This document shows, piece by piece, positions 44,381-59,005 of a stretch of DNA of 64,000 nucleotides. This DNA comes from Candidatus Binatia bacterium. Its GTDB lineage: Bacteria; Desulfobacterota; Binatia; UBA1149; CAITLU01. The stretch spans positions 3,546-67,545 of the forward strand of contig DASPNH010000101.1 of assembly GCA_035626675.1 (NCBI GenBank), in the 5' to 3' direction. The stretch's first letter is position 1. Each line of letters begins with the position of its first letter. Below the pieces are notes generated by a model. The model saw nothing but the letters and a program-made list of their open reading frames with translations. It did no database searches and had not been told where the DNA came from. The position numbers were made by a program, and so were the translations under genes.

Positions 44381-46918
44381 ATGCTTTCATTACGTTCCCT
44401 TCTTCGTGCCGCGGCCTTTGTCGCGGTGGCTGGTGCTCGCGTCGCGAACGCCGACATCGTCGCCGACCATGCCGACGACGTGTGCCCGCCCGCGACCGAT
44501 CCCTGCAACGTCACCCAGCGCATCGAGGTCGTCGACAACGCGACGCTCGATTTCGGCGGCCGCACCCTCGTGGTCAGCGGCAGCGGCGAGCTCGATTTCG
44601 GCAACAGGCGCGGAACGGTGCTGGCCGGCACCACCGCCGTCGGCGGCAGCGGCATCAACGCCGATCTGGACGACGTCGGTTTTCGCGCCACCGTCACGGC
44701 GCGGCGTCGCTGTTCGAACAACAATGCGGTGGTTTGCCTGCACAACGTCGACTGCGGAGCGGGGACCTGCTCGGTGGGAACGGGCAACCTGAGCATCACC
44801 GGTCCCGTCACCGGCAAGACCGGCAGCCCGGCCGACATCATCCTGAATGCAGCGGGCGACGTCTCGCTGGCAGCGGCCATCGACGTCAGCGGCAGCCAGA
44901 CCGAATCCGACGGCGGCAACCTGTCGGTGCGTTCCTACCTCGGCAGCGTCATCGTGACGGGGCCGATCAAGGTCGAGAGTGGGATCTTCGGATTCGGCGG
45001 AAGCATCAACCTGACCGCCGGGCTGGACGTCAATATCCAGACGCCGATCAGCGCCACCGGCGGCGACTTCGACGGCGGCGAGATCACGATCGAAGCAGGA
45101 CGCGACGTTCTCATCAACGTGCAGATCAACGTCAGCGCAGTGGGCGGAAGTGGCGGTGGCGGCACGATGGACGTGACCGCCGCACGCGACATCCTGCTGT
45201 CGGGCGGATCGGGCGCGGACCGCGTCGTCTTCCTTTCGGAAGGTCACGAGGACTCCTTCAGCATCGCGGGCGACGGCGGCGACCTGCTCATGTACGCAGG
45301 CCGCGACGTCGTAGTTGGGCAGTTCGTCAGCCTGTTATCGCGCGGCTCGACGCCCGACGGCTACGGCGGTGACGTCACGGTCAACGCAGGACGCGATTCC
45401 ATCGTGCACGGTACGCTGGAGGCGCTCTCTGCCGGCCAGCAGGGGGACGGCGGTTTCGTCGATCTGCGTGCCGACGGAGAGGTCCTCGCATCCAGCACCT
45501 CGTTGCTCAGCGTTGACGGCGGCAACGTCGGACTGATGGACATCGGCTCGGGCGGAGACATGGAGTTGGCCGGAGCGATAAGTCTGATGGGACGCACGGG
45601 GGGATTCGGCGGCTTCTTTACCGCTCGCGGCGGTGCCGAGCTGATCGTCGGCGGCGCGCTCACGGCCAATCGCGTGTCGGCCGAGATCGACCTCGAGGCC
45701 TGCCGCATCCACTTCACTTCGACGGCGCTGTGGAACAACAACTCGCAAGGCGGCACCAACCGCGTGCTCGCGCGTGAGAGCATGCGCTTCGACGCCGGCA
45801 GCTTCCTGCTGGCTCGCACCGGCGCGACGGCCGGCGAGAACATCCTCGTCTACCGCGACGAGGCCAAGCCTCCGATACTTGGCGGAACCATCACCCCCGC
45901 ACCTGTCCTGGAACTGGAGCCGGAACTGTCGGGCTGCCCGGTCTGCGGCAACGACGAAATCGACGACGGCGAGACCTGCGACGACGGCAACACCGCGGGC
46001 AACGACTCGTGCACGGCCGACTGCCAGCTGCTCGGCTGCGTGGAGCAGACGGTCGGAGGCTATCCGGCCAACCCCCTTTGCAACGACGGCAGCGAGTGCA
46101 CCGTCGACGCGTGCGACCTCGTCAACGAGGTCTGCACGCACGTCACCGACTGCAGCGACGACGTCGCGTGCACGCTCGACGTCTGCCAGGGCACCGTGTG
46201 CCTGCATACGCCGAACAACGGCGCGTGCACCGATGGCAACTTCTGCAATGGCACCGAGACCTGCAATCCCGCCAGCGGCTGCGTCGGCGGCGACGCGCCC
46301 AACTGCAACGACTCGATCGCCTGCACCACCGACGCCTGCAGCACCCAGCTCGGCGCCTGCACGCACGCTCCGGTGCATGCGATGTGCGCCGATACGTCCT
46401 TCTGCAACGGCGACGAGCTTTGCTCGGCCAGCCTGGGATGCGTTGCCGCGCAGCCGGCCACGCGCAACTGTGCCGATGCCTTCGCCTGCACGACCGATAG
46501 CTGCAACGAGCTCACCGACGCCTGCGACCACGTTGCCAGCGATGCCGCCTGCGAGGACGGCAACGAGTGCACGGTCAACACCTGCGAAGTGGGCCAGGGA
46601 TGCGTCAAGGAGCCGAGTGGTCTGCCCGAGTGTCCCGTCACGACCACCACGACGCTGCCCGACGAGCTGTGCGGCGATGCCACCGGGAACGGCGTGGTCC
46701 AGGCCAGCGATTCGCTTGCGGCGCTCAAGGCGGCCGTCGGCGCCGGCTCGTGCGCGGTGGAGATCTGCGACGTCAACGGCAGCGGATCCATCACGGCCAG
46801 CGATGCGCTTGCCATCCTCAAGGCGGCGGTGGGTCAGCCGGTCGAGCTGAACTGCAGCGGCGCCGCCGCCGGCGCCGAGGCCTCGACGACCACCACGACC
46901 ACGCTCGGAGAGGAGTGA
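44381..46918 (+). CDS. Large secreted protein with an N-terminal Gly-rich beta-helix-like repeat region, central Cys-rich repeats, a Thr linker and a C-terminal dockerin-like module
   Basis: The signal peptide reads MLSLRSLLRAAAFVAVAGARVANA. The Cys-rich repeats (C.DGN.CNG.E.C) occur 8 or more times. The C-terminus reads TTTTLPDELCGDATGNGVVQASDSLAALKAAVG...CDVNGSGSITASDALAILKAAVG. Confidence 0.75.
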   Translation: MLSLRSLLRAAAFVAVAGARVANADIVADHADDVCPPATDPCNVTQRIEVVDNATLDFGGRTLVVSGSGELDFGNRRGTVLAGTTAVGGSGINADLDDVGFRATVTARRRCSNNNAVVCLHNVDCGAGTCSVGTGNLSITGPVTGKTGSPADIILNAAGDVSLAAAIDVSGSQTESDGGNLSVRSYLGSVIVTGPIKVESGIFGFGGSINLTAGLDVNIQTPISATGGDFDGGEITIEAGRDVLINVQINVSAVGGSGGGGTMDVTAARDILLSGGSGADRVVFLSEGHEDSFSIAGDGGDLLMYAGRDVVVGQFVSLLSRGSTPDGYGGDVTVNAGRDSIVHGTLEALSAGQQGDGGFVDLRADGEVLASSTSLLSVDGGNVGLMDIGSGGDMELAGAISLMGRTGGFGGFFTARGGAELIVGGALTANRVSAEIDLEACRIHFTSTALWNNNSQGGTNRVLARESMRFDAGSFLLARTGATAGENILVYRDEAKPPILGGTITPAPVLELEPELSGCPVCGNDEIDDGETCDDGNTAGNDSCTADCQLLGCVEQTVGGYPANPLCNDGSECTVDACDLVNEVCTHVTDCSDDVACTLDVCQGTVCLHTPNNGACTDGNFCNGTETCNPASGCVGGDAPNCNDSIACTTDACSTQLGACTHAPVHAMCADTSFCNGDELCSASLGCVAAQPATRNCADAFACTTDSCNELTDACDHVASDAACEDGNECTVNTCEVGQGCVKEPSGLPECPVTTTTTLPDELCGDATGNGVVQASDSLAALKAAVGAGSCAVEICDVNGSGSITASDALAILKAAVGQPVELNCSGAAAGAEASTTTTTTLGEE

Positions 46919-46984
46919 CCGTCGTAGGGGACGGTCCCCTCGACGCCAAGGGTGGCCAGGCGGCTTGTAGCTTCCGAGAAAGGC

Positions 46985-47005
46985 TTAAGGGGACAGTCCC
47001 CTTAA
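46985..47005. repeat. Perfect 21-bp palindrome TTAAGGGGACAGTCCCCTTAA, with related copies AGGGGACGGTCCCCT at 46926-46940 and a half-site AGGGGACAG at 47033-47041
   Basis: It lies in the intergenic region between the secreted-protein gene and ilvD. It is the same element as at 39715-39735, differing only in the central base. Confidence 0.9.
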
Positions 47006-57413: not shown

Positions 57414-57418
57414 GCTCC

Positions 57419-59005
57419 ATGCGCATCCTCGCGTTCGTCGCCGCCGCGGTCCTGGCCGCATCTCCCGTCCGTGCCCAGCTGCTTGCCCCGGCCGTCCGCG
57501 CCGATCTCGAGCGCAGCGGCCGCGTGCATTCGCTCGTGCTCGAGCATCTGGAGGCCGCTGCGAGAATCCGTGTCTTTCTCGAGCTGGATCTGACCGCCGC
57601 CGGCGCCCCGGCCGCTCAGCAGCAAAGCTGGGAGCTACGTCGCCCCTGGGTCGCGGCTGCATCGACCGAAGTTGCAGGCAGCCTCGAGCTCGAGGGTTTC
57701 GAGCTGACGCATCGGTTCCAGGGCATCAGTGCGGTGGCGGGCTGGATCGATGCGCATGCCATCGAAGCCGCGCTGGCACATCCGTGGGTCGCACGCGTGC
57801 TTCCCGACTCGGCCGGACATGCGGCGCTGGAGCAGTCGCTGCCGCTGGCCAACCTGAGTGACACGCGCAGCGCGGGGTTCCATGGCGCCGGCCAGAAGGT
57901 CGCCGTCATCGACAGCGGCGCCGACCGCAACCATCCGGCGCTCGATGACGCCATCGTCGACGAGGCATGCTTCTGCTCCGCGAACTGCTGCCCCAATGGA
58001 CAGGACGAGCAGGAAGGGCCGGGGGCGGCGATGGACGAGAACGGTCACGGCACCAACGTAACCGGCGTCATCGCATCCAGCGGCGCCAACGGCACTCCGG
58101 TTGGCGCAACGCCGGCCGTCGACGTGGTGCTGGTGCGCGTACTCGACGAGAACGGATCCTTCAGTACCACCGCCGACATCGCCGCGGCGCTGGATTGGAT
58201 TCGCGCCGAGCATCCGGATGCGGCGGCGGTCAACATGAGCCTTGCCACGAACACTATCGTGCAATCGCATTGCGACAACACCTTCACGGTCCTGGCACAG
58301 GCAGCAGAGTCGGTCCGCGATGTCGGCGTCCTGCCGGTGGCCGCCACCGGCAACGAGGGCAGCGCCACCTCGATGGCAGCGCCCGCCTGCATCAGCGACG
58401 TCATGGCAGTGGCGGCGGTATGGGATGCCAACATCGGGACGTCGAGCATTTTCTGTCAGGAAGCGACGGCGCCCGACAAGATCACCTGCTTCAGCAATCG
58501 CAACGCGCTCACCGACATCCTGGCGCCGGGAGCGCCGGTGACGTCGACAGGACTGGGAGGCGGAACCTCGACCTACTACGGCACCTCGCAGGCCTCACCG
58601 ATGGTCGCCGCCTGTGCGGTGGCGATGCGGCAGTCCAATGAGGACGTCACCACCGCCCAGATGGTCGCGGCGATGAAGGCCTCGCCGACCATGGTTCACG
58701 ACTCCAAGAGCGGCCAGACGTTCCCGCGCCTGGACTGTCTGGACGCAGTGCTCGACGTCGCCACCACGACCACCACCACCACGCTTCCGATCGAGCCGCT
58801 GTGCGGCGATGCCGACGGTGACGGTCAGGTGGTCGCATCGGATGCACTGACGGTGCTGCACGCCGCAGTGGGGCTGGTGGTCAGCTGTCCGCAGGTGCGC
58901 TGCGATTTTGACGGAAGCGGCAGCGTCACCGCCTCCGATTCCCTGTCCACGCTCAAGCGCGCCGTCGGTCAAACCGTAGCGACCGGCTGCCTGGCCGAGG
59001 CCTGA
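57419..59005 (+). CDS. Secreted subtilisin-like (S8) serine protease with a Thr linker and a C-terminal dockerin-like module
   Basis: The signal peptide is MRILAFVAAAVLAASPVRA. The catalytic triad appears in VIDSGAD, HGTNVTGV and GTSQASPMVAA. The C-terminus reads TTTTTTTLPIEPLCGDADGDGQVVASDALTVLHAAVG...CDFDGSGSVTASDSLSTLKRAVG. Confidence 0.85.
   Translation: MRILAFVAAAVLAASPVRAQLLAPAVRADLERSGRVHSLVLEHLEAAARIRVFLELDLTAAGAPAAQQQSWELRRPWVAAASTEVAGSLELEGFELTHRFQGISAVAGWIDAHAIEAALAHPWVARVLPDSAGHAALEQSLPLANLSDTRSAGFHGAGQKVAVIDSGADRNHPALDDAIVDEACFCSANCCPNGQDEQEGPGAAMDENGHGTNVTGVIASSGANGTPVGATPAVDVVLVRVLDENGSFSTTADIAAALDWIRAEHPDAAAVNMSLATNTIVQSHCDNTFTVLAQAAESVRDVGVLPVAATGNEGSATSMAAPACISDVMAVAAVWDANIGTSSIFCQEATAPDKITCFSNRNALTDILAPGAPVTSTGLGGGTSTYYGTSQASPMVAACAVAMRQSNEDVTTAQMVAAMKASPTMVHDSKSGQTFPRLDCLDAVLDVATTTTTTTLPIEPLCGDADGDGQVVASDALTVLHAAVGLVVSCPQVRCDFDGSGSVTASDSLSTLKRAVGQTVATGCLAEA

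Follow-up and report, generated by a model that had tools for sequence, protein, structure and literature searches.

What is the small domain that closes two different exoproteins of a Candidatus Binatia bacterium, and what might it do there? The question is raised by a stretch of 64,000 nucleotides (contig DASPNH010000101.1, positions 3,546 to 67,545; the whole of this stretch is called the window below). Gene A (44381-46918, + strand) encodes an 845-residue secreted protein made of a beta-helix, Cys-rich repeats and a C-terminal module, and gene B (57419-59005, + strand) a 528-residue secreted subtilase of the S8 family that ends in the same kind of module. A sequence-only reading of the window had described A and B as two secreted enzymes that share a poly-Thr linker and a dockerin-like C-terminal module, and had suggested from this a cohesin-like scaffold or surface-display system. 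It is chiefly from the cellulosome, where they act as plugs, that dockerins are known. We find that the module in A and B, judged by its sequence, its modelled fold and its pattern of calcium ligands, is a dockerin. It belongs to a four-Cys subfamily that is frequent in metagenome-assembled genomes (MAGs) of Binatia and 'Deltaproteobacteria' and that public annotation mostly misses.

The C-terminal module of proteins A and B

In both proteins a run of threonines leads into L-P-x-E-(x)-L-C-G-D, and next comes a module of 63-64 residues, which spans residues 763-825 of protein A (46667-46855, + strand) and residues 461-524 of protein B (58799-58990, + strand). The two tails align with 41 identities over 69 positions (59%, E 1e-20), which confirms the shared linker and module described in the sequence-only reading. 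At the DNA level the tails are only about 60% identical and thus do not stem from a recent duplication. When the window was translated in all six frames and searched with a profile built from the modules of A and B, no third copy came to light.

Each module contains four cysteines and two 12-residue loops of the form D-x-[DNT]-x-[DNS]-G-x-[VI]-x-x-x-D, with a helix after each loop. In protein A the two F-hand calcium loops run from D766 to D777 and from D797 to D808, and the cysteines are residues 764, 791, 796 and 825; the cysteines of protein B are residues 462, 490, 495 and 524. The loop segments (DATGNGVVQASD and DVNGSGSITASD in A, DADGDGQVVASD and DFDGSGSVTASD in B) form part of two tandem loop-and-helix segments of about 22 residues, the arrangement of a type I dockerin. 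The excised modules score 38.7 bits (A) and 25.1 bits (B) against the Pfam family Dockerin_1 (PF00404), above its gathering score of 22.9 bits. When solved structures were searched with a five-sequence profile, seven of the eight matches were dockerins, with 2CCL at the top (E 8e-4). The best sequence matches of solved structure, 2CCL and 1OHZ, are the type I dockerins of Xyn10B from C. thermocellum.

An AlphaFold2 (AF2) model of the module of A, calculated from a small alignment of five sequences, has a predicted local distance difference test (pLDDT) score of 90.2. Helices are predicted at residues 13-23, 31-34 and 44-54; two long helices with a short one between them would reproduce the three-helix dockerin fold. 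Comparison of this model with the Protein Data Bank using Foldseek gave dockerin chains at all of ranks 1 to 33, with template modelling (TM) scores of 0.63-0.87 and a top probability of about 1.0. Most of these chains come from cohesin-dockerin complexes. The profile scores, the Xyn10B matches and the modelled fold together bear out the duplicated loop-helix pattern of type I dockerins on which the earlier proposal turned.

The module resembles the cellulosomal type I dockerins (PF00404; Xyn10B, 1OHZ/2CCL) in its size (about 60-70 residues in that family), its two tandem F-hands of the DxDxDG..D type with Asp at position 12, its three-helix fold (TM up to 0.87) and its internal two-fold symmetry, as well as in its placement at a protein end after a linker of the Thr/Pro type. 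A canonical pair of EF-hands was considered and rejected. The Pfam EF-hand models, which besides Dockerin_1 alone matched the excised modules, reach 9.7-17.1 bits against cut-offs of 25-37, loop position 12 is Asp and not Glu, and the AF2 model is without an entering helix before loop 1.

A four-Cys subfamily and its carriers

Word-indexed homologue searches performed poorly: the 79-residue tail gave three matches and a 54-sequence profile short fragments only. An exhaustive hidden Markov model (HMM) search was therefore needed. Over 1.84 billion cluster representatives it returned 8331 proteins at E<=1e-3 and 1844 at E<=1e-10, totals that take in ordinary Cys-free dockerins. Other carriers of the module, without which the sequence-only reading held that its proposal would fail, are thus numerous, both in this search and in a scan of genomes. 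The latter took a single genome for each species, used a pattern kept narrow on purpose and gave 22 loci, 21 of them from MAGs labelled Candidatus Binatia, 'Deltaproteobacteria', 'Polyangiaceae UTPRO1', 'Myxococcales' or 'Thermodesulfobacteriota'. Several MAGs have two or three loci each despite the narrow pattern, and at six of the 22 loci the module stands straight after a signal-peptide-like N-terminus.

Of 202 unique modules, at least 98% have cysteine at each of the profile positions 2, 29, 34 and 63. There is some circularity in this figure, since modules that contain Cys served as the seed of the profile. A fifth cysteine, at position 32, is present in 30%, and rare modules keep only Cys2 and Cys63 (pattern C---C). 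Of the full-length modules, 132 of 136 have at least four cysteines. Loop positions 1 and 12 are Asp in 98-100% of the 202 unique modules (98% at D4 and 100% at D15 in the first loop, 99% at D35 and 100% at D46 in the second), loop position 6 is Gly and position 8 is Val or Ile. Both repeats carry the helix motif [ST]D[AG][LV]xxL[RK]xA[VA]G, in fuller form [TV][AV][ST]D[AG][LV]xxL[RK]xA[VA]G. This motif and the four near-invariant cysteines, with the fifth in about 30%, distinguish the Binatia-type modules from classical type I dockerins.

In 122 of 151 analysed proteins no more than 15 residues separate the module from the C-terminus; in 17 of them the module is near the N-terminus, with cargo downstream. 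A Thr run occurs within 25 residues upstream of about 32% of modules; the poly-Thr linker is therefore common and not defining. The cargo includes beta-helices, beta-propellers, disintegrin, C-type lectin, BNR, FG-GAP, Laminin_G_3, GH43, Lcl_C, imelysin M75, Big_2, Amidase_2 and Peptidase_M64 domains. Cellulosomal dockerins are borne mainly by carbohydrate-active enzymes (CAZymes), whereas the Binatia-type modules are attached to proteases, adhesin-like beta-helices, lectins and propellers. A precomputed PF00404 label is attached to about one sixth of the 120 matches listed, and nearly all those with a name are called 'hypothetical protein'. Many members of a Binatia sub-type marked by 'VTVTDGV' score 13-18 bits on PF00404, under the threshold.

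About 20 orthologues, with identities to protein A that range from 71% to about 30%, keep the C-terminal Cys-dockerin, which argues that the module is functionally integral. Five distant relatives of protein A (P0291, P0292, P0295, P0297 and P0301) end without the double Cys-dockerin; their C-terminus apparently holds one F-hand-like segment, e.g. ...GADVNGDRRIGAGDIPGLVDLLGGG.

Dockerins on proteins other than CAZymes, in organisms that do not degrade cellulose, are already established, and the core of our finding is thus of a known kind. Beside such non-cellulosomal dockerins cohesins are reportedly often fewer or absent. In PMC5244752, with reference to Peer et al. 2009 (FEMS Microbiol Lett 291:1), cohesins and dockerins are placed in all domains of life and their role outside cellulosomes is called unknown; further reviews treat non-cellulosomal dockerins as possible adhesins. 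The modules studied here share with these dockerin-like modules the non-CAZyme carriers and the hosts that do not degrade cellulose. They differ in being a Cys-bearing subtype, in their expansion in Binatia, and in that many members are sub-threshold in Pfam and named 'hypothetical'. No description of this Cys-bearing dockerin subtype or of its Binatia expansion was found in the full-text literature searched, the coverage of which is incomplete and gives no proof of novelty. What may be new is the disulfide-type dockerin variant together with its Binatia expansion.

Three kinds of sequence met among the matches are recorded here as observations in their own right. P0008 and P0017, both multi-dockerin proteins, and P0020, which has cohesin and dockerin, are low-Cys and Firmicute-like and were set aside as uninformative on Binatia. 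P0020 is Cys-free and the sole protein with both cohesin and dockerin among the profile matches; P0017 (473 residues) is unusual in that five or six canonical Cys-free dockerins share the protein with a type IV pilin methylation motif (N_methyl) at the N-terminus. Secondly, three metagenome contigs of 74-113 kb (L025, L026 and L027) contain many split gene calls, for example in ALAD and Peptidase_M64, which suggests frameshift-rich long-read assemblies as a source of spurious stand-alone small dockerin open reading frames (ORFs). Stand-alone dockerin ORFs of 65-110 residues were not accepted as a class of their own; they are probably fragments of frameshifted genes, and in L026 they trail pieces of Peptidase_M64. 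Thirdly, several Binatia-type MAGs encode a family of about 330 residues with a signal peptide, an N-terminal Cys-dockerin (L005 666-857, L009 4001-4192 and L010 3563-3751) and a beta-rich domain of about 200 residues without a Pfam match. This family could be a candidate adaptor or partner.

A proposed clasp, a possible partner and competing explanations

We consider it fairly probable, taking the explanation as a whole, that the four-Cys dockerin folds with Ca2+, is held by two disulfides and docks diverse exoproteins on a common partner. The proteins would be exported by Sec via their signal peptides, and the module would fold around two Ca2+ ions in the oxidising periplasmic or extracellular space. 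Two disulfides would then lock it. The first would run from the cysteine at position -1, before the G-D of loop 1, to the cysteine that closes the module, making a covalent 'intramolecular clasp' between the N- and C-terminal ends. The second would join the cysteine after helix 1 (Cys29) to the one just before loop 2 (Cys34), a pairing proposed because of the pseudo-symmetry of the module. The flexible Thr-rich linker would keep the module off its cargo, and the conserved symmetric helix faces would dock the exoproteins on the shared partner; the docked cargoes would comprise the subtilase, the adhesin-like beta-helix protein, imelysin, M64 peptidase, lectins and propellers. The mobility of the module, which occurs at either the C- or the N-terminus and with very diverse cargo, counts in favour of this explanation.

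A clasp of a different chemistry is known from other dockerins. It is a non-covalent contact of a residue at -1 to -3 before G0-D1 with a C-terminal residue, and both the fold with bound calcium and the surface that binds cohesin gain stability from it (Slutzki et al. 2013, PMC3821032). Known clasps are made by aromatic stacking or by hydrophobic or electrostatic contacts, and when the clasp is broken the melting temperature falls by up to 20 degrees C and cohesin binding becomes about tenfold weaker (PMC3821032). Cys2 (position -1) and Cys63 (the last module residue) sit at these same clasp positions. Unlike the non-covalent clasp, the one proposed here would be a covalent disulfide, and it would be accompanied by a second, pseudo-symmetric Cys pair.

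Several points weigh against docking by a four-Cys dockerin. The full-length proteins score 22.6 (A) and 21.3 bits (B) on PF00404, slightly under the gathering score, which is probably why their NCBI names are only 'hypothetical protein' and 'S8 family serine peptidase'. The cysteine figures carry the circularity mentioned above, and the calcium binding, the disulfides and the protein-protein interaction are predictions. Genes A and B lie 10.5 kb apart amid housekeeping genes and form no dedicated cluster. For diderm hosts, of which this one is presumably an example, the literature searched gave no cohesin-based model of anchoring. The search for a partner gave no cohesin. Pfam Cohesin (PF00963) matched none of the approximately 46 ORFs of the window, for which an alignment-based scan (25 families listed) was complemented by direct rescans of the remaining ORFs. 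A crude cohesin HMM of low sensitivity, made from four repeats of P0020 and the sequence of CipA Coh2, gave no match in the related loci L001-L024 or in the window translated in six frames. No cohesin stands among the precomputed Pfam labels of the genes flanking three more carriers (L025-L027). The cohesin-like partner supposed in the sequence-only reading was thus not found in the loci searched, and the scaffold or display system remains a conjecture which these searches neither confirm nor exclude.

A cellulosome with its scaffoldin was considered and rejected for this locus. No cohesin was found in the loci searched, one GH43 is present among the cargo domains of 50 carriers, and the cargoes in the window are a subtilase and an adhesin-like beta-helix. 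The host differs as well, being an uncultured Binatia lineage with neither cohesin nor scaffoldin detected in these loci, as opposed to the anaerobic cellulolytic Firmicute of cellulosomes.

That no cohesin was seen anywhere examined would also be expected of a dockerin with no dedicated receptor, a structural appendage stabilised by Ca2+ and disulfides that serves as a folding or solubility aid or as an extracellular stabiliser. The statement in PMC5244752, after Peer et al. 2009, that cohesin and dockerin function outside cellulosomes is unknown is in keeping with such a role. We nevertheless regard it as unlikely, since both helices are strongly conserved on unrelated cargoes, the module is kept in orthologues down to 30% identity, and placement at either protein end on a flexible linker is a hallmark of interaction modules. 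Docking on a shared partner might be extended to an extracellular assembly or display throughout the Binatia, which are diderm and non-cellulolytic, with dozens of exoproteins per genome attached by a disulfide-locked dockerin to a receptor not recognisable as cohesin. In this wide form it is unlikely; the part of receptor might fall to a partner of novel fold or to some component of the outer membrane or matrix.

A third possibility is that the module tethers exoproteins not to a cohesin but to a polymer of the cell surface or matrix, such as a glycan of the lipopolysaccharide or extracellular polysaccharide, or to a mineral or Ca-rich surface. The presumably diderm host with no cohesin detected, the many adhesin-, lectin- or propeller-like cargoes and the exposed Ca-binding loops would all suit such an anchor. 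The dockerin structures recovered are, against this, mostly from cohesin-dockerin protein complexes, and nothing was found that shows glycan binding by a dockerin; we judge a non-protein anchor improbable.

That the module is cleaved off in maturation, either as a tag for secretion or sorting at the C-terminus or as a pro-domain of proteases like the pre-peptidase C-terminal (PPC) domain, is very improbable: it does stand C-terminal in most carriers after a linker, and C-terminal processing domains are frequent in subtilases, but PPC (PF04151) has no match at E<=10 in the full proteins or the excised tails, the AF2 model is helical, no NCBIfam sorting-signal model matches the tails of A or B, and a C-terminal signal offers no explanation for the modules that are near the N-terminus or internal in a minority of carriers. 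The individual sorting signals considered (MYXO-CTERM, PEP-CTERM, GlyGly-CTERM, LPXTG and the C-terminal domain of the type IX secretion system) were rejected, the tails (...SGAAAGAEASTTTTTTLGEE in A and ...LAEA in B) being without a hydrophobic stretch. In this the results agree with the sequence-only reading, which had seen no C-terminal membrane helix or MYXO-CTERM-like signal and had put forward PPC as the match that would overturn it.

Docking aside, the subfamily is well defined, abundant and largely unannotated, has a probable disulfide lock, and occurs in a widespread uncultured lineage of soil and sediment. It offers a handle on the organisation of the Binatia secretome and on whether dockerins work without classical cohesins. 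A very small disulfide-clasped, Ca-dependent docking module could serve as a robust affinity tag. By itself the finding adds only incrementally to a domain family that was already known.

The two proteins and their surroundings

Gene A was taken from the ORF list. Its product is an exact match to NCBI, ENA and JGI records (HYC54992.1, 'hypothetical protein', Candidatus Binatia bacterium). The NCBI call has 830 residues, 15 fewer than the 845 of the ENA and JGI calls, and the 845-residue form opens with a plausible signal peptide. This predicted signal peptide, MLSLRSLLRAAAFVAVAGARVANA (44381-44452; all features of A and B given here are on the + strand), was recognised by eye from its hydrophobic core and A-x-A site; hydropathy peaks at residues 10-28 and the AF2 pLDDT is below 50 at residues 1-22. 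A right-handed beta-helix domain of about 490 residues follows (approximately residues 25-510, 44453-45910), then Cys-rich repeats with 35 cysteines (residues 517-752, 45929-46636), for which Pfam and NCBIfam give only sub-threshold matches to DUF4215, Dicty_CTDC and TIGR02232 (myxo_disulf_rpt). The poly-Thr linker TTTTT (residues 754-758, 46640-46654) leads to the dockerin, and the protein ends after a 20-residue non-hydrophobic tail that includes a second poly-Thr run (46886-46903) and closes with STTTTTTLGEE. P0267, the closest orthologue of protein A, has a similar Thr-rich tail after its dockerin. Possibly the tail is what is left of a linker to a further module that has since been lost. 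We note that the stop codon of gene A is followed by two short GC-rich hairpins, GGGGACGGTCCCC and AAGGGGACAGTCCCCTTAA (46919-47040).

Protein A is a beta-helix protein of adhesin-like type. It has no recognisable catalytic domain and its status as an enzyme is not demonstrable; the description of A and B as two secreted enzymes holds for the subtilase B and was overstated for A. For the beta-helix adhesins of two-partner secretion (TPS), such as HMW1, EtpA, FHA and HxuA, the comparison is confined to the N-terminal domain of protein A; in protein A the Cys-rich repeats and the dockerin come after the beta-helix. A TPS-domain exoprotein (TpsA) was rejected as an assignment, since the Pfam scan of protein A gave no Haemagg_act/TPS match and no TpsB-like Pfam family was present in any window ORF scanned.

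Protein B is HYC55002.1 in NCBI ('S8 family serine peptidase', Candidatus Binatia bacterium). Its start was set, within a long ORF ending at 59005, at the in-frame ATG at 57419, which opens a signal-peptide-like sequence; the predicted signal peptide, read from the sequence, is MRILAFVAAAVLAASPVRA (57419-57475). The S8 catalytic domain (residues 156-422, 57884-58684) matches Peptidase_S8 (PF00082) with 112.5 bits (E 3e-32) and contains the triad D165/H210/S390 in D-H-S order, so that profile and triad both identify a peptidase of family S8. The poly-Thr linker TTTTTTT (residues 449-455, 58763-58783) and the dockerin, assigned by Pfam Dockerin_1 and by its similarity to A, complete the protein, apart from the non-hydrophobic four-residue tail LAEA.

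The window otherwise encodes housekeeping functions, among them ribosomal protein S1, MutS, GlnD, IlvD, DAHP synthase, a XerC-like recombinase and a P-type ATPase. About 1.6 kb upstream of gene A lies a gene for a matrixin/M10-like zinc metalloprotease (41569-42810, - strand; Pfam 40 bits), the product of which is a probable secreted protease without a dockerin; a DAHP synthase gene and an ABM-domain gene stand between the two. Between the two Thr-linker genes, 53689-55287 (+ strand) encodes a 532-residue multi-pass membrane protein with a sub-threshold match to Mannosyl_trans4, a DolP-mannose mannosyltransferase family (27 bits, where the gathering score is 33). No NCBIfam or solved-structure sequence match was found for it. 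To judge from this match it could be a GT-C-type glycosyltransferase relevant to O-glycosylation of the linkers. Its start overlaps the stop of 52283-53692 (+ strand), which encodes an ankyrin-repeat protein bearing a signal peptide. Finally, a 132-residue ORF (57015-57413, + strand), with only a weak, sub-threshold match to DUF6941 (17.5 bits), ends 6 nucleotides before the start codon of the S8 gene, with which it is possibly co-transcribed.

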